A program made the translations under genes and the position numbers. Shown piece by piece: positions 50,432-60,522 of a stretch of 64,000 nucleotides of DNA. The stretch lies in the IMG/VR virus record IMGVR_UViG_3300020331_000002; one strand, given 5' to 3'. Below the pieces are notes generated by a model that worked only from the letters and a program-made list of their open reading frames with translations, had not been told where the DNA came from and ran no database searches. Origin of the DNA: a virus. Lineage: Duplodnaviria; Caudoviricetes. Position 1 is the stretch's first letter. Each line of letters begins with the position of its first letter.

Positions 50432-53239
50432 ATGAAAGTCACAACCAAAGGAAAAGAAACACGGACTTCGAGCGGCGTTGCCTCGACAGGCTTTACCATA
50501 AAATCTAACGCACACGCTTTTAAGATATTATCAAGCAACATGTATTCAAACCCACGACACGCTATTATTCGTGAGTTGTCTACTAACGCACTTGACGCGC
50601 ACGCGATGAATGGTAACACCGAGAAGCCGTTTGATGTGACCCTCCCGACGCAGTTTAATCCAGTATTCGTGTTAAGGGATTATGGCCCTGGCTTGGATAT
50701 AGACAATGCAACTAATCTCTATACCACGTATTTCGACAGCACTAAAAACGACGACAACAAAGCCGTAGGCGGTCTGGGCCTTGGATCCAAATCACCACTC
50801 GGTTATACAGACATTTTTAATGTTGTGTCTTACCACGAAGGAAAAGCACACTATTTCGCTGTAATTATTAATGAAGAAGGCCTCCCGTCTATCAACCATT
50901 TGGGCAGCTCGGACACTGACGAACCGTCAGGACTTGAAGTTTCAGTACCGATGAAAAACAACGAATCTTCTGAACGTGCACATTGGCTGGCTGAAGCTAT
51001 CGACATTTACATGTGGTTCCCTGAAGGCTCTGTTAATATTGTTAATCCGTCGGCGTACGATGACCGTCTTATTGATGAAGATATAGCTAGTATCGTCCAG
51101 GCAGGCAAAGTAGCGCTAGAAGAAGCCGCTGACTACGATATAGTGTCGTATTCTACTAACGTATACTTCGATGGAGGCAATAGCAGGTTGAATTATCACA
51201 CCTCCAAAGTACGGATACGTAGCTCGGGCCTTTACGCTCAAATGGGGCCTATAATTTACCCAGTCAGTATGGACCGTTTGGTGCTTCCAAACAACATGAC
51301 TTTAAACGCGCCTGACTCCGCAGTAGTAATGGAGTTTGGTATAGGCGAACTTACGATTGCACCTTCCCGTGAAGAACTCCACTATGACGACGAAACAGTC
51401 TCTGCCTTAAGTAAACGTATATGGCAAGCAGTTAACAACACAATCACAAGTATCACAGATGCAGTTGAAGAAATACAAACCGTTGATCAAGTAATTGAAA
51501 TGGCTAAGAACGGCCTGGAACTTGATGTGCCGGGCGGCACGTATGCAGCTCGTATGGCCAGTATGGACTTTCGTTCGCTATTAAGCGATCGTGTCCAGAA
51601 AATCGTTGACGCTCAGTATAATCCTATACTATCTGTATCGACACTTTCTTTAGATTCTGAACGAGTAGCACATAAGAAGAACAAGTACCGTATTAACCTT
51701 AGTATGTCAATACCTGACTTGTTTGTGACACATGGTACTATACCTGTAGAAGATGTGGCTGAGGTCAAACAAGCGCTTTGTCGTGCACGTATGATGAAAG
51801 CCGATAAGACATTTGACGTTGTCTATACAGAAGTAGTACACCGACACATACTGGACAAAGTTTACGAAAACTATTTGGAATCTGACCAAGCCGAAGAAGT
51901 AGTTGAAGCAGTTGCCGAACTGCTAGGCCTTGACCCTAGCGATGAATACTTTGACGAGACAGACTTGCCGTTGGGTAGGCTGTACCCGCGACACTTAAAG
52001 GGTTTAGTGGATGACGGTTTCGAAAACTTCGAGACTGCTTATGCTTTTGAATATGATTTCGGCAAGACGTGGACTCGTACTTGGACAAGTAGCAACTTTT
52101 TCAAAGACAGTGTAGAGATTTTGATTGAAGACAAGGCAGGCTACGTTAATGCTTGGCGTCAATACGTTAAGGAAAATCGTGCTTACTACTGCAACATAAG
52201 TATTCTAGCAAACGAAAAAGATGCTAAGCTAATCAAAGCGTTCCTCGATGCTGTTGACTTAAAAGTATCACACTACGGTAACGTAAGTGATTTTGAACCT
52301 GTAGTTGATATTAGGGAAGCCAACCGTCGCGATACATCTGCTATGAATATTGGTGTCCGCCGCGTGCGCAAAGACGGGTCGCTAATTGATTCTTATTTAG
52401 AAAACTGGGATGTTGTTAGCGTACACTCTGATACCACTGTGTACGTGAGCATAGACGCAGGTACGTTGTCGTCGCCGTATTCTACTGAGACAATGGAAGC
52501 GTGTAGTAAGTATTCTGACCAAGTTAAAGAGCTAGTTAACAAGGCCTATACGCTGCCCTCAGGTGACCCTGTTTCTAGAATATTGTTTTATACTGCAAGT
52601 AAACGGAATGTGAAGGCTATCGAAAACCTTGAAAATTGTTTGTCTGTGCAGTTAAAAGACTTCCGTGGTAAAATATCTGAAATGGCAGTAGTAGATCACA
52701 AAGACTACATTGATTCTATTAAAGGGGTATCGGCCGGCGAACTAGCAGGTAATATACCGAGCTTTATAATGGAAACTATAGAGTTCATATCGGATAATTG
52801 TCCTGATCTTAGATTTAAGATAGATGATGATTTTACTAGTAAATACGTCAACAAGGTCTTAACAATTACGTCAGCTACTACGAGCAACACCTACCAGTTC
52901 CTAGAGGCAGTAATTGGTAAACAAGACTTTCATGCTATTATTGAAGACGAGTCTTCAAAAGAAAGTAAAATGTTGCGGGACGCGACGTTCTGTGGTAAAA
53001 TTGCTAACGTCTTCGCGACACCGGTACTGTATTCGTTTGTACGCGGCTTGAGACTCGCGCAGAACAGTGCTTATTCTTATACAGGCATTTACGACTGTAG
53101 TTCGTGCGAACTAACGCGATATGATGGTCAGAAGCGTATTGTTCGCATACCGGAAGTTTCTATCAAAGAAGCGCTAAGACAAGCACGGAATATAATACGA
53201 GATCAGGTAATAACTGATACTAACACAGGAGAGGAATAA
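50432..53239 (+). CDS. rIIA: rIIA-like protein (N-terminal GHKL ATPase)
   Basis: LSSNMYSNP..AIIRELSTNALDAH, RDYGPGL, STK, GGLGLGSKSP, PSREELHY. Confidence 0.92.
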   Translation: MKVTTKGKETRTSSGVASTGFTIKSNAHAFKILSSNMYSNPRHAIIRELSTNALDAHAMNGNTEKPFDVTLPTQFNPVFVLRDYGPGLDIDNATNLYTTYFDSTKNDDNKAVGGLGLGSKSPLGYTDIFNVVSYHEGKAHYFAVIINEEGLPSINHLGSSDTDEPSGLEVSVPMKNNESSERAHWLAEAIDIYMWFPEGSVNIVNPSAYDDRLIDEDIASIVQAGKVALEEAADYDIVSYSTNVYFDGGNSRLNYHTSKVRIRSSGLYAQMGPIIYPVSMDRLVLPNNMTLNAPDSAVVMEFGIGELTIAPSREELHYDDETVSALSKRIWQAVNNTITSITDAVEEIQTVDQVIEMAKNGLELDVPGGTYAARMASMDFRSLLSDRVQKIVDAQYNPILSVSTLSLDSERVAHKKNKYRINLSMSIPDLFVTHGTIPVEDVAEVKQALCRARMMKADKTFDVVYTEVVHRHILDKVYENYLESDQAEEVVEAVAELLGLDPSDEYFDETDLPLGRLYPRHLKGLVDDGFENFETAYAFEYDFGKTWTRTWTSSNFFKDSVEILIEDKAGYVNAWRQYVKENRAYYCNISILANEKDAKLIKAFLDAVDLKVSHYGNVSDFEPVVDIREANRRDTSAMNIGVRRVRKDGSLIDSYLENWDVVSVHSDTTVYVSIDAGTLSSPYSTETMEACSKYSDQVKELVNKAYTLPSGDPVSRILFYTASKRNVKAIENLENCLSVQLKDFRGKISEMAVVDHKDYIDSIKGVSAGELAGNIPSFIMETIEFISDNCPDLRFKIDDDFTSKYVNKVLTITSATTSNTYQFLEAVIGKQDFHAIIEDESSKESKMLRDATFCGKIANVFATPVLYSFVRGLRLAQNSAYSYTGIYDCSSCELTRYDGQKRIVRIPEVSIKEALRQARNIIRDQVITDTNTGEE

Positions 53240-54576
53240 TGATATCGTATATCATACGTGAAGATAGTGTTGTCGTTTTCGTAGACGGCAAACAACACAT
53301 CGTTTCACAGAGTAATCACCCGCGATTTGCTGGTATTGTAGATGCCATTGATCGTGAAGACCATGAGTATATTCGAGAGAATATAAACGTCAAGGACGCA
53401 ATAACTCGTGAAATCACCGGCGCTTGTGAAGGCCGTGTAGAAGTAACCGACTCACAAGTATTGTTTAACGGGGCGGTTGTTACCAACTCAATCGGTAAGC
53501 GTATCCTTAGATGTATCGAACAAAAGCTACCGTTCAGACCACTGATGCGCTTCCTAGACAATATCATGGAAAACCCGTCTCGTACGGCAGTTGAAGAACT
53601 GTTCTTGTTTTTAGAACATAACGACTTGCCAATTACAGACGACGGTCACTTGCTTGCATATAAGAGCGTAACGGAAAACTTCAAAGACCGTCACACTGGT
53701 ACTATCGACAACTCGCCTGGCCGGGTAGTGGAAATGCCGCGTGAAGAAGTAGATAGCGAACGTGAAAGAACATGTTCATCCGGTTTGCACTTTTGCGCGT
53801 TGCACTACTTGAGCACGGCCTACGGGTATGGCGGCCAAGTGGTTATCCTTAAAATTAACCCGCGTGACGTAGTAAGTATTCCGTCGGACTACAATAACTC
53901 TAAGGGCCGCTGCTGTCGTTACGAAGTGCTATGTAAACAAAACAAACCAGGCGACGATATTCTAGCTCAAGGCCCAGCAGTAGTTGAGACCGAAGCGGTT
54001 AAAGATATCGTGAACAAGACTTCTACAGAAGTATATAACACTGACGGTAGTGAGTTTGTTCCTGAAGAGCGTGGATCAACTGTGCACTTTGAAAAACCAG
54101 TTGATGAAGTACCGGAAGAAGATGAAGAAAAGCCAGCCGAAACTGTTACTGAGTCTAATGTTCCTGGCGAACTACAGGTACCCTCTGCTACAGATGAAGC
54201 CCATCCGTTTGTTGGTAAAACTTTAGCGCTCTTCAGTGTGCAAGGCACGTTCTATAACGGTCGTCGTTACGTTGAAGCTAAGCTTCCTGTTTACGTTGCA
54301 TTAGAAGATGGCATGAGCTTAGACGACGCTGCTGAAATTCTAATAGAGTGTGAAGAAGCTGTTCGCTACCGTGTTTCTAACTTCCGTGTAGGTGCCAAGC
54401 AAACCTTACTAGTTAGACGCAGTGACGGTCCTGATTCACTTAATGTTGAGATTCAGAGCACTGGTAAGGTTAAGCTTAATAAACACGTTTCGTTTAACGG
54501 CGTATGTGTTGAAAGCACAGAAGACGGCAAAACTTTGATTGGTCTTAACGTCGGAAGCCCAGGCCGCTTAGAATAA
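53239..54576 (+). CDS. rIIB: rIIB-like protein with C-terminal extension
   Basis: ELFLFL..LPITDDG.LLAYK, CSSGLHFC, INPRDVVSIPSDYNNSKGRCCRYEV. Confidence 0.92.
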   Translation: MISYIIREDSVVVFVDGKQHIVSQSNHPRFAGIVDAIDREDHEYIRENINVKDAITREITGACEGRVEVTDSQVLFNGAVVTNSIGKRILRCIEQKLPFRPLMRFLDNIMENPSRTAVEELFLFLEHNDLPITDDGHLLAYKSVTENFKDRHTGTIDNSPGRVVEMPREEVDSERERTCSSGLHFCALHYLSTAYGYGGQVVILKINPRDVVSIPSDYNNSKGRCCRYEVLCKQNKPGDDILAQGPAVVETEAVKDIVNKTSTEVYNTDGSEFVPEERGSTVHFEKPVDEVPEEDEEKPAETVTESNVPGELQVPSATDEAHPFVGKTLALFSVQGTFYNGRRYVEAKLPVYVALEDGMSLDDAAEILIECEEAVRYRVSNFRVGAKQTLLVRRSDGPDSLNVEIQSTGKVKLNKHVSFNGVCVESTEDGKTLIGLNVGSPGRLE

Positions 54577-54635: not shown

Positions 54636-55517
54636 ATGGATACTTTTGACACACAGTATTACGAGCTTCTTCTCCATTTGGTGAATGTAGCTGAAGAAAA
54701 ACCTTCATCCCGCCCGGGCATGAAAACAAAGTCGACATTCGGGCATTCTATGTCAGTTGACTTGAGTGACTCCCTCCCGTTGACTACATTGCGCAAGACT
54801 CCGCTTAGATGGATATTTGAAGAAACAATGATGTTTGTGCGCGGTGAATCACAAACAAAAGTTCTAGAAGAAACCGGGATTACTATTTGGAAAGGTAATT
54901 CAAGCCGTGAGTTCTTAGATAACAAAGGTCATACTGATTGGCCGGAAGGTGAAATCGGTCCTGGCTCCTATGGCGCCCTGTGGCGTGCGTTCCCCGGCAA
55001 GGACGGCAAGACTGTCGATCAACTTAAACAGCTTGTAGACGGGCTAAAGAATAACCCGTACGACCGTAGACACTTAATTAGTGCATGGCATCCACAGTAC
55101 TCAGTAGATTTTGCTGCGCTACCCGCATGCCACATATTACAGCAATATGATGTAACCCCTAGCGGCAAGCTAAACAGCAACTTTTACATGAGATCCAACG
55201 ATGTGTTGTTCGGCTTGCCGTTTAATATGGCACAGTACGCGTTTATGAATATTTGTATTGCTAAACTCGTTGGACTTGAGCCCGGTAAACTTACTTATAT
55301 GTGTGGTGATTCACACATTTATGAAAACCAGTACGCGGCGTCTGAATATTTATTGTTACAGACAGAGCAAATGGATATTCCGCCACCGCCGAAACTAGAA
55401 ATTACAAAAGAGCTAAACACCTTAGATGACTTTGTAGACCTCAAGTACACAGACTTGCAACTAACAGGCTATAATCCTAATCCGGATATACCGAATAAAC
55501 CAAAAATGGCCGTTTAA
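54636..55517 (+). CDS. thyA: Thymidylate synthase
   Basis: LPACH, YMRSND, GLPFN (dUMP-specifying Asn), GDSHIYENQ, C-terminal MAV. Confidence 0.96.
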   Translation: MDTFDTQYYELLLHLVNVAEEKPSSRPGMKTKSTFGHSMSVDLSDSLPLTTLRKTPLRWIFEETMMFVRGESQTKVLEETGITIWKGNSSREFLDNKGHTDWPEGEIGPGSYGALWRAFPGKDGKTVDQLKQLVDGLKNNPYDRRHLISAWHPQYSVDFAALPACHILQQYDVTPSGKLNSNFYMRSNDVLFGLPFNMAQYAFMNICIAKLVGLEPGKLTYMCGDSHIYENQYAASEYLLLQTEQMDIPPPPKLEITKELNTLDDFVDLKYTDLQLTGYNPNPDIPNKPKMAV

Positions 55518-55626: not shown

Positions 55627-56316
55627 ATGTCATTTAATAAAACAAAAACTGACCCAGTTCTGGGCGCAAAAATCCAAGAACACTTGCTTGCGAAAGGTGT
55701 AGCAACTCCGGTTGTAGACGAGTTTCTAACAGTAGAAGCCAAAGAAAAAATATCTGTACTTGAAAAACACTTCTTTGAAATTTGGAAGAACTTAGGTATG
55801 GATATGACAGACGACAGTTTGTGCGAAACACCTAAGCGTATGGCTAAAATGTACGTGTTGGAAACAATGTGGGGCCTACTTCCTGAAAACTTTCCTAAGT
55901 GTACCGCCGTAGACAATAAAATGTCATATGACGAAATGGTTCTTGAGTGTAACATTAACGTTCAGTCTAACTGCGAGCACCACGGTGTGGTAATTGACGG
56001 TCTTGGTTATGTTGCATATATGCCCAAAGACAAAGTACTGGGTTTAAGCAAGATCAACCGTATTGTTGAATACTTTGCTAAACGGCCGCAAATCCAGGAG
56101 CGCTTAACAGAGCAAGTGTACTATGCGCTACAATACATTTTAGGTACCGACGACATCGCAGTTGTAGTCGACGCGACTCATTATTGTGTTAAGTCGCGCG
56201 GTGTTGAAGATACTGGGTCTAGCACTATGACTAGCAAGTTAGGTGGTCAGTTCAAAGAAAACCAAGCCCTTCGCCAAGAGTTCATGTCTCTAGTAAACGC
56301 GAAGCGCATCAAGTAA
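55627..56316 (+). CDS. folE: GTP cyclohydrolase I
   Basis: ETPKRMAKMY, SNCEHH, GLSKINRIV, RPQIQERLT, HYCVKSRGV. Confidence 0.97.
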   Translation: MSFNKTKTDPVLGAKIQEHLLAKGVATPVVDEFLTVEAKEKISVLEKHFFEIWKNLGMDMTDDSLCETPKRMAKMYVLETMWGLLPENFPKCTAVDNKMSYDEMVLECNINVQSNCEHHGVVIDGLGYVAYMPKDKVLGLSKINRIVEYFAKRPQIQERLTEQVYYALQYILGTDDIAVVVDATHYCVKSRGVEDTGSSTMTSKLGGQFKENQALRQEFMSLVNAKRIK

Positions 56317-56326
56317 GGGAGGCATT

Positions 56327-57334
56327 ATGGCCGAAAGTACAATGTTCTTGTCGAATATAAGCGTTGTGGATCATGCTTATATTGACGACATGGGTATGAT
56401 TATAGGCGGATCCTATAACCCTAGCTTTCTAGTAACTGGGAAAGTAACAGACGACGAAAGTGTGGTTATTGATTTCAGTACTGGTAAAAAAGCACTGAAG
56501 AAAATAATCGATCATGACGTTTACGGATTCGATCACAAGCTGTGGTTGATAGAAGGTTTTAGTAACGTGTCTACTGTTACTATCGTGTCGTCTGCTAAGC
56601 GCGAATACCTGAATAAGCAGTTTCTGGCGATCAGTGATCCCCGTCTTAAGCAGTACATGGAAGAAAGCGAAAAGACTATGTCTATGAGAAGTGATGTTGT
56701 TAGAATTACTTCTAGAGCGTTTGAGATCGATGTGCCGCGTGACGCGATTAAATGGGTGCAGAACCTTAAGCCGAGTAAAGACCTGCAAGAAATAGTAACC
56801 GAAGCGCTTGTTGCCTTGCTTGAAGAAAAGCTACAGGCCGAAGCCGATTACGAAGTTTCGCTCGAGTGCAAACTAGAGGTCACCGAACATGTGTATAATC
56901 AACATGTGCCGACCGCGCCGTTTAGATACACGCATGGATTAAAGTTCTCTACGTCTTGGGGATGCCAAAACATTGCCCACGGGCACTTGAGTTATATGCA
57001 GCTTATATTCGATGATATGACGAAGACTATTCGTCCTGAATACGTGAATGCAGTTGCCAAAGAGTTCGAAAACGTAGTGTTCGTGTTCAAAGAAAATGTC
57101 ATTGCACATGACGAAAAACACATCACTATCCAATACAGAACTAATCGCGGACATTTCCGTGCAAAGTATAACTTGAAACGTTTTGACGTTCGCTTGCTTG
57201 ATACTGAAACTACGGTAGAGTATCTAGTAGATCACATCTCCAAGTGTGATGCTGTACAGTCACTTCTTAAAGAAGGGCTTAAAGAGCTATACGTCAGTGA
57301 AGGGTTATCTAAGGGCGCTATGAAGCGGTTCTAA
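56327..57334 (+). CDS. QueD/PTPS-like tandem T-fold protein (long form)
   Basis: VIDFSTGKKALKKIID..FDHKL in the N-half; YTHGLK..GCQNIAHGH and ETTVEYL in the C-half; directly after folE. Confidence 0.7.
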   Translation: MAESTMFLSNISVVDHAYIDDMGMIIGGSYNPSFLVTGKVTDDESVVIDFSTGKKALKKIIDHDVYGFDHKLWLIEGFSNVSTVTIVSSAKREYLNKQFLAISDPRLKQYMEESEKTMSMRSDVVRITSRAFEIDVPRDAIKWVQNLKPSKDLQEIVTEALVALLEEKLQAEADYEVSLECKLEVTEHVYNQHVPTAPFRYTHGLKFSTSWGCQNIAHGHLSYMQLIFDDMTKTIRPEYVNAVAKEFENVVFVFKENVIAHDEKHITIQYRTNRGHFRAKYNLKRFDVRLLDTETTVEYLVDHISKCDAVQSLLKEGLKELYVSEGLSKGAMKRF

Positions 57335-57352
57335 TAATAACAACACTGAGAC

Positions 57353-57376
57353 AAAAAGGGACTTCGGTCCCTTTTT
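57353..57376. terminator. Intrinsic terminator with cUUCGg tetraloop
   Basis: AAAAAGGGAC-TTCG-GTCCCTTTTT. Confidence 0.92.
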
Positions 57377-57410
57377 TCTTAAATATGCTTATAGGAAATA
57401 GGAAATATTT

Positions 57411-58451
57411 ATGCCAAATCATATTGGAATTAGTGTACTGGCTACCAAGCCGGGCCAGCCACCAACGTCCGGTGGTACTACGGTAGAAGCATTTATGTTC
57501 GATACGTTCGAAGACGCGGTGCCGTTTATAGCTAGCTATGAGCCGCCTACTAATTTCGAAGTGTTTCAGACCTGGAATCGTTTCTCTAATAGCCTTTTCT
57601 TTGAACCGGGGGATCCGCTGTCTAACAACGCGGGTGCGTTCACGTATAACTCGTCAGCTGACAGGATACAGTGCACGGCAAATACACCCCAGTATGTTGG
57701 ATTCTCCAGTCCGAGCAAATCACGCAATGTGACCATTGAAGTTACTGTCGGTTCCACGGCACAAGACGATGATGCGCTTGCTGTCATTGTTGCACACGAG
57801 CCTTACACGAATGCCGACGGCGAACCTGCAAACAGGTTCCTTGCAGTTATACGACAACCCGGCGGCTTAGCACTCGGGGGAGGATCAGGCCAGTATTACC
57901 TGGCGTGTTTGTCTTATAATGATACGGAGCAATCAGGCGGTGTGTACTTGCCGTTAGGCACACCAGTAAACTGGAACAACGGTCGTAACTCAAGCAACAA
58001 TGGCTGGGCAGCAAGTGGCAAGAGCCGTATACGAATTGAGAGAGAAGGACCAGTAATCCGAGCTTGGGCCACCCCGTTCTCCACCCAAAGCCTCGCAGCC
58101 CTATCAACAGTGGATCCTAGTGAAGATAATCCTAACAGCATTATCAACATCAACACTGGTAATTACCCAGAGCTTGCATGGGTAGGCGCTAATAAATTGG
58201 CGTTTGGTTATGGCTGTCAGTCCCAGGACGATGCATACTTCGCAGACATAGAGATAGAAGGCGGCCTGCTCAACGATACTATTTTTGTGGCATCCACGAA
58301 CAGTGTTTACAAATACAACTATGACACTGGTGAATGGGACTTAGTGGAAGGCGAAACTGTGCAGAGCCGCTTAGGTAAACGCATCGATATAGTTAACCCT
58401 AACACCGGCAAAAAGTACGTCGTTGACATAAACGGTAACCTAATAACTTAG
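57411..58451 (+). CDS. Late-expressed beta-rich protein, possible lectin-like virion component
   Basis: TTAAATA at 57379-85, AGGA SD; V.STAQDDDALAVIV and G/S/N-rich beta pattern. Confidence 0.7.
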   Translation: MPNHIGISVLATKPGQPPTSGGTTVEAFMFDTFEDAVPFIASYEPPTNFEVFQTWNRFSNSLFFEPGDPLSNNAGAFTYNSSADRIQCTANTPQYVGFSSPSKSRNVTIEVTVGSTAQDDDALAVIVAHEPYTNADGEPANRFLAVIRQPGGLALGGGSGQYYLACLSYNDTEQSGGVYLPLGTPVNWNNGRNSSNNGWAASGKSRIRIEREGPVIRAWATPFSTQSLAALSTVDPSEDNPNSIININTGNYPELAWVGANKLAFGYGCQSQDDAYFADIEIEGGLLNDTIFVASTNSVYKYNYDTGEWDLVEGETVQSRLGKRIDIVNPNTGKKYVVDINGNLIT

Positions 58452-58519
58452 CTTTGTGGCAAAGCTTATTAGAATCGTTAATAACTTAAAAAAATTGTTA
58501 AAAAATACGCATGATGGTC

Positions 58520-58548
58520 TTGATTTATCTTTTACGACTTACTAGTCT
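58520..58548 (+). promoter_or_regulatory. Sigma70-like promoter; second extended -10 promoter at 58629-58637
   Basis: TTGATT-17 nt-TAGTCT; TG-T-TATAAT further downstream. Confidence 0.55.
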
Positions 58549-58715
58549 TAGGAATAACAAGGGCGCCGTAATTTTTGCAGAATAATTACATTTTTATGCA
58601 CCTAGGTGTTTGGATTCAGGCATGGCTGTGTTATAATTATTTATACTAAAAAGCAGTAATATAACTGTAGTCGCAAGAGCCTTTCTTGCGAGACTTAGAT
58701 AAAAATATCAGAGCC

Positions 58716-59063
58716 ATGCATAATAACAACAATAATACAGGCATGACGTGTGAATCCTGGTACGAAGAACATCGCCGTACAATTAACGGACTGTATAGTA
58801 GATCGGATTCAGGCACGGCCTTCTCGCAAGAGTTATATGGTGCAATATTTAAAACGTGCGATTTTTTGCCGGTAACCCTTGTAACAGACTATCACGAAAA
58901 CGGATTTAAGAAAAATGACTTGTTAATTCGCCGCTGCGAGTTTACGGGCTGCTTTTTCACAACCACGGTTTTGTGTGATTGTCATATGAATACTGATTTT
59001 GACGTCGACTTTGTTATACGACTAAATTGTAGTAACAAAGTACAAAAGGACATAAGTATATGA
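58716..59063 (+). CDS. Cys-rich hypothetical protein
   Basis: ORF track 58686..59063; start uncertain (58716 or 58743); ATGA overlap with the next gene. Confidence 0.55.
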   Translation: MHNNNNNTGMTCESWYEEHRRTINGLYSRSDSGTAFSQELYGAIFKTCDFLPVTLVTDYHENGFKKNDLLIRRCEFTGCFFTTTVLCDCHMNTDFDVDFVIRLNCSNKVQKDISI

Positions 59064-59449
59064 CACCCATCAAACAGAGACTTATCTACGTCACGTTTCA
59101 AAAAGAAGGCATACACTGCTACCCGGCAGCCGCTACTGATCCGAAGTTAGCGACCGGCGACTGGAAAGACGTTAGTTTTCTTGCTCATCCGCATCGACAC
59201 ATCTTCCATTTTAAAGTCACTATTAGTGTGACTCACAATGATCGTGATATCGAGTTCATTCAATTTAAGCGTTGGTTAGAGCGCTTATATGATGGCACTC
59301 TTGAGTTAGATCACAAAAGTTGTGAAATGCTAGCCGAAGAATTAGGCGAAATCATACTCGAAGAATACGGGTATGATGGTGTTTATCTAAAAGTAGACGT
59401 TAGCGAAGACGACGAAAATGGTGCTGTGCTGGTGTGGGGTGATAAATGA
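59060..59449 (+). CDS. Second QueD/PTPS-like single T-fold protein
   Basis: EGIHCYP, HPHRHIFHF (His cluster), DRDIEF and KSCEMLAEEL (cf. QueD PTAENIA). Confidence 0.65.
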   Translation: MTPIKQRLIYVTFQKEGIHCYPAAATDPKLATGDWKDVSFLAHPHRHIFHFKVTISVTHNDRDIEFIQFKRWLERLYDGTLELDHKSCEMLAEELGEIILEEYGYDGVYLKVDVSEDDENGAVLVWGDK

Positions 59450-60522
59450 ATACGATTTTTATTGTCCCGATTGAGCCTTTAGAAACGCGATACACCGGCG
59501 AGTGGTACGGTCATTTGCCTGCTACCCTTACCCGACAAATCGCCGACAACGAGTCAGAGTACCAAGTTCGAGTTATCGACGGTGATGTTGTGTCACCACG
59601 GCCAAGTCCGGGTGCTTTCTTGGACTTCGCTGCAACCAACATTTACAAGTCATCCCAGCTAATTAGTATAGCAGAGATGTTCCGTGATGGCGAAGTTAAA
59701 CCGGGTGACAAGTTCCTGTTTACTGATTTTTGGAATACGTGCGCTCTACAACTGCGTTATATGAGCGATCTTAACGGTATTCCTGTTGAGATACATGGAT
59801 TAGCGCATGCCGGTAATTATGACCCTAACGACTTCCTAGGGCGCATAAAAGACGGTGACTGGGCTAAGGCTACAGAGCAAGCATTTTATCACGCGTATAC
59901 GAATATCTGGTTTGCGACACACACGCATTTGGATCTATTCAGCGACAACGTGATGGGAAGCGGCTTTGAAGATTCAGCTGACAAGCTACGCATAACTGGC
60001 TGGCCGATGGAATATATGCAATCGATGAATAAGCCGTATATTAAAACGGAAAAGAAAGACATTGTATTATTCCCGCACCGATTAGCGCCAGAAAAACAAC
60101 CCGAAATATTCGACATGCTCGCTGAGCGCATGCCCGAGTATGAATTTATCAAGTGCCAAGACAAAGAACTTACCAAACGCGAGTACCACACTTTGCTCGC
60201 TGAGAGTAAGGTTGTCTTCAGCGCAAACTTACAAGAAACGTTAGGGATTAGTGGGCCCGAAGGAATGTGCTTTGGCGCAATTCCGTTGGTTCCTTTGAGA
60301 CTTAGCTATCTTGAAATGTTCGATCCGGAGTTTACCTATCCTTCGGAATGGACTACCAGCCTTGAAGCTGCCGAAGAACATGCAGACGACTTAGTTGCGT
60401 TGATACGTCACGCGGTGCAGAACTACGGTAATCTTCAAACTAAACTTCAACATAATAAGAATAAGATACTACGCAATTTCTTTTCAGCAGACGCGTTATA
60501 CGCAGAGCTTCTAGATCTCTAA
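59446..60522 (+). CDS. GT-B fold glycosyltransferase (GT4-like)
   Basis: FPHRLAPEKQPEIF and SANLQETLGISGPEG..GAIPLVP (E-x7-E signature). Confidence 0.8.
   Translation: MNTIFIVPIEPLETRYTGEWYGHLPATLTRQIADNESEYQVRVIDGDVVSPRPSPGAFLDFAATNIYKSSQLISIAEMFRDGEVKPGDKFLFTDFWNTCALQLRYMSDLNGIPVEIHGLAHAGNYDPNDFLGRIKDGDWAKATEQAFYHAYTNIWFATHTHLDLFSDNVMGSGFEDSADKLRITGWPMEYMQSMNKPYIKTEKKDIVLFPHRLAPEKQPEIFDMLAERMPEYEFIKCQDKELTKREYHTLLAESKVVFSANLQETLGISGPEGMCFGAIPLVPLRLSYLEMFDPEFTYPSEWTTSLEAAEEHADDLVALIRHAVQNYGNLQTKLQHNKNKILRNFFSADALYAELLDL

Follow-up and report, generated by a model that had tools for sequence, protein, structure and literature searches.

A predicted GT4-type glycosyltransferase linked to a putative, split DpdL-type 7-deazaguanine gene set in a marine jumbo phage

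From the 64,000-nucleotide stretch of phage DNA analysed here (the window; IMG/VR record IMGVR_UViG_3300020331_000002), we have examined a group of genes at 55627-60522 that includes folE, two genes for T-fold proteins and a gene for a predicted glycosyltransferase (GT). The best explanation as a whole is that the window carries one half of a split DpdL-type 7-deazaguanine DNA-modification system in which the GT adds a sugar, a reading that we hold at about even strength. Its parts do not stand equally firm. That the genes serve a deazaguanine pathway is very probable and that the GT belongs to this pathway is likely, while a glycosylated deazaguanine in virion DNA is a tentative proposal, somewhat short of an even chance. 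The first-pass annotation of this DNA had suggested a candidate undescribed pathway; the core matches instead the described dDG-type pathway and is thus already known, leaving the GT as the unexplained part. The copy in the source phage contributes a split arrangement and a tandem QueD, and brings out how phages with DpdA3 and no GT differ from phages with a long tRNA-guanine transglycosylase (TGT)-like protein and a GT.

The source is a marine jumbo phage with a genome of 310,672 bp that has direct terminal repeats and is rated complete, and the window corresponds to the minus strand of genome positions 118,684-182,683. Its replication proteins are closest to those of the PA5oct group of Pseudomonas jumbo phages; identities to this group are 55% for the DNA polymerase, 46% for RNase H, 44% for the TGT-like protein and 42% for the GT. 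No match was obtained when the region was compared by megablast with 50,697 phage records.

The DpdL-type gene set and its two loci

The genes of the region all lie on the window's plus strand. Four of them are central to the argument:

55627-56316, plus strand: folE, GTP cyclohydrolase I, 229 residues (PF01227, NCBIfam NF006824)
56327-57334, plus strand: long tandem T-fold (bimodular) QueD/PTPS-like gene, 335 residues, presumed CPH4 synthase (by family and AlphaFold2 (AF2) fold)
59060-59449, plus strand: dpdL, 129 residues, a QueD paralogue without the catalytic Cys (by homology and signature)
59446-60522, plus strand: GT4-like GT-B glycosyltransferase, 358 residues (by AF2 fold and motifs)

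The overlap of dpdL with the GT gene, ATGA at 59446-59449, is read directly in the sequence. dpdL starts 1.7 kb past the long QueD gene, and the gap is taken up by two open reading frames (ORFs), at 57411-58451 and 58686-59063. The first-pass annotation had listed the same four genes, the ATGA overlap, and the HPHRH and SCEMLA motifs that the 129-residue protein contains, and all of these are present where it had placed them.

That annotation had treated the small T-fold protein as an unknown enzyme. Judged from its sequence, it belongs to the DpdL family of putative 7-carboxy-7-deazaguanine (CDG) decarboxylases, which is already published (PMC10516641). It shares 34% identity (BLASTP E 4e-17) with CGPG_00067 of Cellulophaga phage phiST, the protein that the DpdL passages of PMC10516641 name DpdL and propose as the CDG decarboxylase behind the complete replacement of G by dDG in that phage. 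According to the same passages, the signature LxxxHRHxF in DpdL replaces the CxxxHGH of QueD; residues 41-49 of the protein studied here, LAHPHRHIF, fit this signature, as do 74 of 74 GT-adjacent DpdL homologues. A closer relative, with 55% identity (E 2e-36), is encoded by a gene adjoining QueE in Acidovorax phage ACP17, whose dpdL is one of two that were chosen for expression in PMC10516641. Homologues at 53-66% identity that have folE, queE or both as neighbours occur in Rhizobium phage RHph_I1_18, the PA5oct group and ACP17. The genomic context of DpdL is likewise found in the source phage, with FolE, QueD, QueE and a TGT-like gene present and QueC absent, the DpdA assignment being the weak member. 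A DpdL-like sequence also makes up the C-terminal third of a 383-residue annotated protein of Vibrio phage Bakedbeans, gp176 (L127:6212-7363), which may be a fusion of a DpdL-like part with another N-terminal domain.

FolE is clear from its sequence, with a PF01227 E value of 1.1e-55, an NF006824 score of 286.8 bits (cut-off 202) and 61.5% identity to FolE of ACP17. The long T-fold protein, the short one and the GT were all left unnamed by Pfam at default thresholds. For the long protein the Pfam PTPS model (PF01242) gives a sub-threshold E value of 0.08 (13.3 bits, cut-off 22.4), and TIGR03367 is also below its cut-off (19.3 against 89 bits). The protein falls, however, in a family of 477 proteins of about 300 residues, many of which carry PF01242. 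Its AF2 model (33 homologues, pLDDT 94) has two T-fold halves, and the best PDB matches, Plasmodium PTPS (E 9e-6) and E. coli QueD, each cover about half of the model. The N-terminal half holds D15-H16, E44 and D69-H70 and the C-terminal half C213-x4-H218-G-H220 and E294/E298; among these, C213-QNIA-H218-G-H220, which is one residue longer than CxxxHGH, is invariant, together with H16, D69-H70 and E294 across both halves. The family includes the genes of about 300 residues called 'PTPS-like/QueD' in Vibrio phages nt-1, VH7D, phi-Grn1, phi-ST2 and 6E35.1a. Passages of PMC10516641 report measured DNA deazaguanines in nt-1, phi-Grn1 and phi-ST2, and show DpdA2 and DpdM of VH7D working in E. coli. 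The long protein thus appears to be the ordinary QueD type of known deazaguanine phages. In a scan of the whole genome it is the sole PF01242-like match, which marks it as the QueD of the pathway rather than some unusual additional enzyme. The two T-fold proteins are non-redundant, as had been supposed, the long one being of the QueD type and the short one DpdL.

The remaining members of the set are encoded elsewhere in the genome. By BLAST of the genome with the dpdL neighbours from PA5oct and ACP17, we have found a gene for QueE (301 residues, G000:C1:68391-69296) and a TGT-like gene (C1:69405-71144) side by side; they adjoin the DNA polymerase gene and are separated from the cluster in the window by about 52 kb. 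The earlier description of the cluster as being without QueE, QueC and DpdA holds genome-wide for QueC, no PF06508 match being found in the whole 310,672 bp; QueE and the TGT/DpdA-like gene are absent from the window only. QueE shares 35% identity (E 3e-57) with the annotated QueE of PA5oct, and its N-terminal 35 residues match five NCBIfam QueE models with scores far below the cut-offs. The radical-SAM cysteines of QueE (L007:6392-7297, minus strand) are spaced C33-x3-C37-x38-C76, a 38-residue insert taking the place of the canonical CxxC or Cx14CxxC.

The TGT-like protein, of 579 residues, is homologous to the genes lying directly upstream of GT-dpdL in PA5oct (44% identity) and, weakly, in ACP17. 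Neither the Pfam TGT model (PF01702) nor the DpdA model (PF23859) matches this protein or anything else in the genome. The Pfam TGT model is equally silent in the ACP17, PA5oct, RHph_I1_18 and phiST genomes, and the published DpdA3 of phiST itself fails both a Pfam scan of the protein and a PF01702 scan of the genome. When the profile of the 579-residue family (44 homologues) was compared with the PDB, 36 of 38 weak matches were tRNA-guanine transglycosylases (E 0.5), and the invariant DSGGFQ of the family was aligned on the DSGGFQ of the TGT active site. The family also aligns with phiST DpdA3 (hhalign probability 73%, E 3e-5), TGT and DpdA domains occur in the ESM Atlas neighbours of the protein, whether found by features or by structure (TM 0.82-0.85), and the homologue in Xanthomonas phage BUDD is annotated as a queuine tRNA-ribosyltransferase.

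Taken together, FolE, QueD, QueE, DpdL and a DpdA-like enzyme without QueC appear to be the published dDG-type gene set, here split in two loci. The source phage resembles phiST, the DpdL/DpdA3 phage with dDG (PMC10516641), in having FolE, QueD, QueE and DpdL but no QueC, and in presumably relying for insertion on a distant member of the TGT superfamily. It differs from phiST in the length of this protein (579 residues against 259), in its 335-residue tandem QueD, in its two loci 52 kb apart, and in the GT4-like gene coupled to dpdL, of which phiST has none; the MazG-like and kinase-like genes of phiST were not found in the source phage. The clusters of ACP17 and PA5oct share the same families (GT 36-42% identity, DpdL 55-59%, QueE 35%, and TGT-like protein 44% for PA5oct) and are by annotation also without QueC. 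There the genes form one uninterrupted run (TGT-like, GT, DpdL ... QueE), whereas in the source phage dpdL and the GT gene stand with FolE and QueD, apart from QueE and the TGT-like gene.

The glycosyltransferase and its gene neighbourhood

The GT is predicted from its structural model to be a GT4-type GT-B enzyme, a sugar transferase. The AF2 model has a two-domain GT-B fold (pLDDT 89, pTM 0.88); of its 446 PDB matches at E ≤ 0.001, the best are BshA, MshA and glycogen synthase. The top Foldseek matches are GT4 enzymes, PimB also among them (E 1e-9 to 1e-7), and the top Swiss-Prot matches are all GT4. Two motifs, E264-x7-E272 (EX7E) and R212-x4-K217, are invariant in 32 homologues; these we take to be the NDP-sugar donor-binding motifs of retaining GT4 enzymes. 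Since the Pfam Glycos_transf_1 model scores 14.5 bits against a cut-off of 26.4 (19-21 bits for the ACP17 and PA5oct homologues), the protein is classed here by fold and not as a Pfam member. Its N-terminal, acceptor domain is strongly conserved and has no likeness to anything named, and the family profile gave no match to PDB sequences. Because DpdA3 escapes Pfam, the GT was at first suspected of being a mis-read DpdA3 transglycosylase; this was rejected, as the protein shows no similarity to phiST DpdA3 and its model is clearly GT-B.

The comparison that weighs most is that of gene linkage, for which we have taken the 80 best IMG/VR loci with a homologous GT, counting for each gene only those loci with enough flanking DNA. 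DpdL lies by the GT in 65 of 67 loci, and the long TGT-like gene (47/47), FolE (43/47) and QueE (36/37) are nearly as constant or more so, all on the same strand. A conserved linkage of the GT to the small T-fold gene, whose absence the first-pass annotation had named among the possible refutations of its reading, is therefore what the related viral contigs show. The usual order in these relatives is DNA polymerase, a 243-residue protein, the TGT-like protein, a 173-residue protein, DpdL, a 77-residue ORF and the GT, followed by an XPRT-like phosphoribosyltransferase (PRTase), a HIT protein, FolE, QueE and RNase H. From DNA polymerase to RNase H the module forms a single contiguous cluster. 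In the source phage, FolE, QueD, DpdL and the GT lie about 52 kb from QueE and the TGT-like gene (G000:C1:62000-78000 region), beside rIIA/rIIB and thymidylate synthase.

Cultured phages give the same picture, as every full-length GT homologue (18 records, from the PA5oct group, ACP17, Phosso, BUDD, X1, BCSR5 and BUCT-ZZ01) lies within about 4 kb of dpdL, with dpdL and the TGT-like gene as the GT's neighbours. Gene orders differ among them, being GT, TGT, DpdL, QueE in BUDD and TGT-like, DpdL, GT in BUCT-ZZ01. Among 35 GT loci from bacterial assemblies, a TGT-like gene stands beside the GT in 26 and DpdL in 22; in such islands, which have no folE, the TGT-like gene and the GT stay paired whether or not DpdL is present. 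The differing gene orders and the bacterial loci provide independent support for the linkage. An island in Pelagibacterium mangrovi (L102) reads resolvase ... TGT-like protein, YhhQ/Vut_1-like protein, GT, where YhhQ/Vut_1 is a queuosine-precursor transporter family. In Magnetospirillum aberrantis (L111) the order is HEPN protein, CoiA-nuclease-like protein, GT, DpdL, TGT-like protein, PTPS, which looks like a restriction-modification-type use of the module.

These neighbourhoods bear on the possibility, raised by the first-pass annotation, that FolE, a PTPS-like protein and a pteridine GT make a free pterin glycoside as in cyanobacteria, a metabolite and not a DNA modification. The parts would be suitable, as FolE and PTPS-fold proteins occur with a GT4-like protein of about the length of the cyanobacterial BGluT, and the BGluT structures 5zes and 9v0l are among the fold matches of the GT. 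However, they rank only 37-39, behind many unrelated GT4 enzymes, and the sequence profile of the GT is empty in the PDB. The phage also encodes QueE, which commits CPH4 to deazapurines, and the small T-fold protein is DpdL by its signature. Since the GT accompanies the transglycosylase-like gene even in bacterial islands that have no folE, a pterin glycoside is unlikely; little speaks for it, and we consider it the least probable of the readings weighed here.

A T4-like role is scarcely more probable. The GT would then act on a 5-hydroxymethylpyrimidine to whose synthesis the thymidylate-synthase-like gene at 54636-55517 contributes, and the closeness of the GT to dpdL would be incidental. 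The T4 alpha- and beta-glucosyltransferases are established GT-B enzymes of a phage that stand among base-modification genes, as the GT does here, and they resemble it as candidates for post-replicative sugar decoration of DNA. They differ in acting on 5-hydroxymethylcytosine instead of a presumed purine analogue, and they are absent from the 50 best PDB fold matches of the GT. The gene at 54636-55517 scores 198 bits in NCBIfam, past the thymidylate synthase cut-off of 108, and has the uracil-specifying Asn (in PFN) and not the Asp of dCMP hydroxymethylases; it is the only thymidylate-synthase-family gene of the genome, in which the T4-type 5-hydroxymethylpyrimidine pathway is not present. Moreover, a thymidylate-synthase-like gene lies near the GT in 1 of the 80 related loci, while DpdL and the TGT-like gene are nearly always there. 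A small 2OG-Fe(II) oxygenase of the genome was also considered as the supplier of a hydroxyl group for the GT and was dropped, as the 19 phages that have it (XaC1, nt-1, RP12, Phabio, Lu11 and others) do not overlap with the DpdL/GT phages.

The genes that accompany the GT in relatives raise a further alternative. Between the GT and folE, the XPRT-like PRTase is found in 46 of 57 related loci (L034:12127-12684) and the HIT protein in 25 of 53 (L034:12674-13048). An NDP-sugar epimerase/dehydratase (L034:5373-6146) is encoded in 19 of 48 loci. Together these genes suggest a guanine salvage or nucleotide-level branch together with a dedicated sugar donor. If entry were at the nucleotide level, CDG or 7-deazaguanine would first become a nucleotide, as happens in tubercidin biosynthesis, and after reduction and phosphorylation would serve the phage polymerase as substrate, leaving other roles to the TGT-like protein and the GT. 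In favour of this, BUCT-ZZ01 has a PRTase, tubercidin biosynthesis uses CDG, a PRTase and a decarboxylase (bioRxiv 10.64898/2026.04.15.718813), and the relatives' cluster adjoins the DNA polymerase gene. Against it, neither the PRTase nor the HIT protein has a detectable homologue in the source genome, where the epimerase and the 173-residue and 77-residue proteins are also undetectable. The constancy of the TGT-like gene in the related loci speaks in the same direction, as does the literature, in which every known phage deazaguanine is attributed to insertion of the DpdA type. An equally good reading of the PRTase in the relatives is that it salvages the guanine released by base exchange. We therefore regard nucleotide-level entry as improbable.

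A further comparison is between two architectures of cultured DpdL phages. In phiST, for which passages of PMC10516641 report measured dDG, a nucleoside of [M+H]+ 267.1, and in Vibrio phage D479 and Aeromonas phage Ahp1, DpdL occurs with a short DpdA3 (259-290 residues) and no GT. In ACP17, BUDD, BUCT-ZZ01, the PA5oct group and the source phage it occurs with a long TGT-like protein (416-579 residues), and the GT is always present. RHph_I1_18 has a DpdL with 62% identity, no detectable GT and no match to the long TGT profile. The presence of the GT thus follows the transglycosylase type more closely than it follows DpdL, which suggests that the GT acts at the step of insertion into DNA or close to it.

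A proposed pathway and how it is weighed

In the proposed pathway, FolE would convert GTP into dihydroneopterin triphosphate (H2NTP), the long tandem QueD would make CPH4 and QueE would make CDG, steps that homology supports. Without QueC, the pathway would therefore stop at CDG and never reach preQ0. DpdL would then convert CDG into 7-deazaguanine, as proposed by Cui, Hutinet et al. 2023 (PMC10516641), and the 579-residue TGT/DpdA-like protein may swap guanine in the phage DNA for the deazaguanine base. As an integral extra step, the GT4-type enzyme would transfer a sugar from an NDP-sugar onto the deazaguanine, either as the free base, which the enlarged transglycosylase would then insert, or after its insertion into DNA. 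This would yield a 7-deazaguanine with an attached sugar that may shield the DNA from host nucleases, and some bacteria would mark their own DNA with the same module. Of the two products put forward by the first-pass annotation, a sugar-bearing deazaguanine on DNA is thus the one that remains a live reading. As a prediction across phages, the proposal that all those with DpdL, a long TGT-like protein and a GT4-like protein (the source phage, PA5oct, ACP17, BUDD and BUCT-ZZ01) carry glycosylated 7-deazaguanine in their DNA is plausible, though we rate it below an even chance.

Two published observations fit a missing step of this kind. Passages of PMC10516641 report that dpdL and dpdA of ACP17 gave no dDG in E. 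coli, and that the authors suspected missing enzymes. The ACP17 GT gene (product ASD50404) lies between or beside the dpdL (ASD50405) and dpdA genes, the product of the latter probably being the TGT-like ASD50403. As for PA5oct, passages of PMC12191111 report that it carries modified G, that restriction enzymes whose sites contain G fail on its DNA, and that nucleases sensing hypermodified DNA attack it. The word 'glycosyltransferase' occurs 0 times in PMC10516641 and is counted once in PMC12191111, whose examined passages on PA5oct modification mention no such enzyme; in the papers that could be searched, none describes this GT or a glycosylated deazaguanine in DNA.

That a sugar can be placed on a 7-deazapurine base at all is made feasible, by analogy, by HuiG of huimycin biosynthesis, a GT that acts on a free 7-deazapurine base with UDP-GlcNAc, at the exocyclic amine (bioRxiv 10.64898/2026.04.15.718813). 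Compared by description, HuiG is also encoded with FolE/QueD/QueE-type genes and puts its sugar on a 7-deazaguanine-derived base. Its cluster differs in being an actinomycete secondary-metabolite cluster that has QueC and no enzyme for insertion into nucleic acid, and PF13439, reported for huimycin GTs, gave no match on the GT studied here. QTMAN/GTDC1, the tRNA-queuosine alpha-mannosyltransferase, has a GT4 fold too, the Drosophila enzyme standing at Swiss-Prot rank 26 (E 7e-8). It is nevertheless no closer to the GT than dozens of other GT4 enzymes, and its N-terminal Pfam domain gave no match on the GT. Its acceptor is the cyclopentenediol of queuosine, which the pathway of the source phage, without QueC, QueF and QueA, could not make.

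Several points weigh against the glycosylation reading. A hydroxyl group is missing from 7-deazaguanine, which leaves no obvious point of attachment for a sugar; N2, O6, C7, C8 or the carboxyl of CDG could serve. The GT family is acidic (median isoelectric point 5.4), with no hint of DNA binding, although this does not discriminate, because the TGT-like protein of the same genome is acidic too, as are all the families. RHph_I1_18, with DpdL and no GT, indicates that DpdL can work without it. The source phage is without the sugar-nucleotide, PRTase and HIT genes common in its relatives. QueE lies far under the NCBIfam cut-offs and has unusual Cys spacing, the sequence signals for a transglycosylase are weak (PDB profile E 0.5, with neither Pfam model matching), and the decarboxylase activity of DpdL is only proposed, even for the founding members. 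The 80 viral loci, finally, are the nearest relatives of the query; they share ancestry and are not phylogenetically independent.

Some of these points favour a different view, namely that the phage makes plain dDG as phiST does and the GT does not decorate the base. The GT could then be an accessory or scaffold of the long transglycosylase, or could glycosylate something else, for instance a protein, a by-product at the nucleotide level, or free base destined for detoxification or export. FolE, QueD, QueE and DpdL without QueC are the exact set that gives dDG in phiST, and the lack of an obvious sugar acceptor, the acidity of the GT and its co-variation with the transglycosylase type and not with DpdL can all be accommodated. 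This view accounts poorly for the donor-binding and catalytic motifs, which are invariant across the GT family, for the NDP-sugar epimerase/dehydratase in part of the related loci, and for the keeping of the GT in an operon across unrelated phage lineages and bacterial islands. The attack on PA5oct by nucleases that sense hypermodified DNA also counts against it, though plain dDG may suffice to explain this. We consider plain dDG the chief rival, unlikely though a serious possibility, and continue to favour glycosylation of the deazaguanine.

To our knowledge, all glycosylated DNA bases found so far are pyrimidines, namely glucosyl- and arabinosyl-5-hydroxymethylcytosine, base J and glycosylated 5-hydroxycytosine. 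A sugar on 7-deazaguanine, if true, would be a new class of DNA hypermodification and, as far as we know, the first case of a genome with a sugar on a purine-type base. It would have consequences for defences by restriction, CRISPR and glycosylases, whose targeting of deazaguanine phages is by now established, and it would explain two loose ends, the failure of dpdL and dpdA of ACP17 and the modified G of PA5oct, a candidate therapy phage. The module is present in hundreds of uncultured phages, and carriers are already in culture. Taken alone, the window has a more modest value, as one more, oddly split copy of the module.

Neighbouring genes and further families

The other genes in and beside the cluster are as follows:

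50432-53239, plus strand: rIIA
53239-54576, plus strand: rIIB
54636-55517, plus strand: thymidylate synthase, 100 bases upstream of folE
57411-58451, plus strand: 346-residue ORF, copy of a fibre/structural end domain (by PHROG and paralogy)
58686-59063, plus strand: 125-residue ORF with a TTG start, its 3' end overlapping the start of dpdL

The rIIA/rIIB homologues (window 50432-54576) are directly upstream of thymidylate synthase and folE. In related loci, a 173-residue protein (L034:8732-9256) is encoded directly upstream of dpdL in 62 of 67 cases, and 59 of 79 loci have the 77-residue ORF between dpdL and the GT; neither family has a Pfam, PDB-profile or ESM Atlas match. The 125-residue ORF of the source phage has no Pfam or PHROG family and no counterpart in any of the 80 related loci, and shows no likeness to the 173-residue family that holds its position in the relatives (hhalign probability 0.2%). 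The 346-residue ORF likewise has no counterpart in the 80 loci. It matches parts of tail fibre and virion structural proteins in PHROG, and is 34% identical over 348 residues to the C-terminal end of a 1261-residue protein of the same genome (G000:C1:250794-254579). It is probably a stand-alone fibre/structural end domain that was inserted in the cluster and stands outside the pathway.

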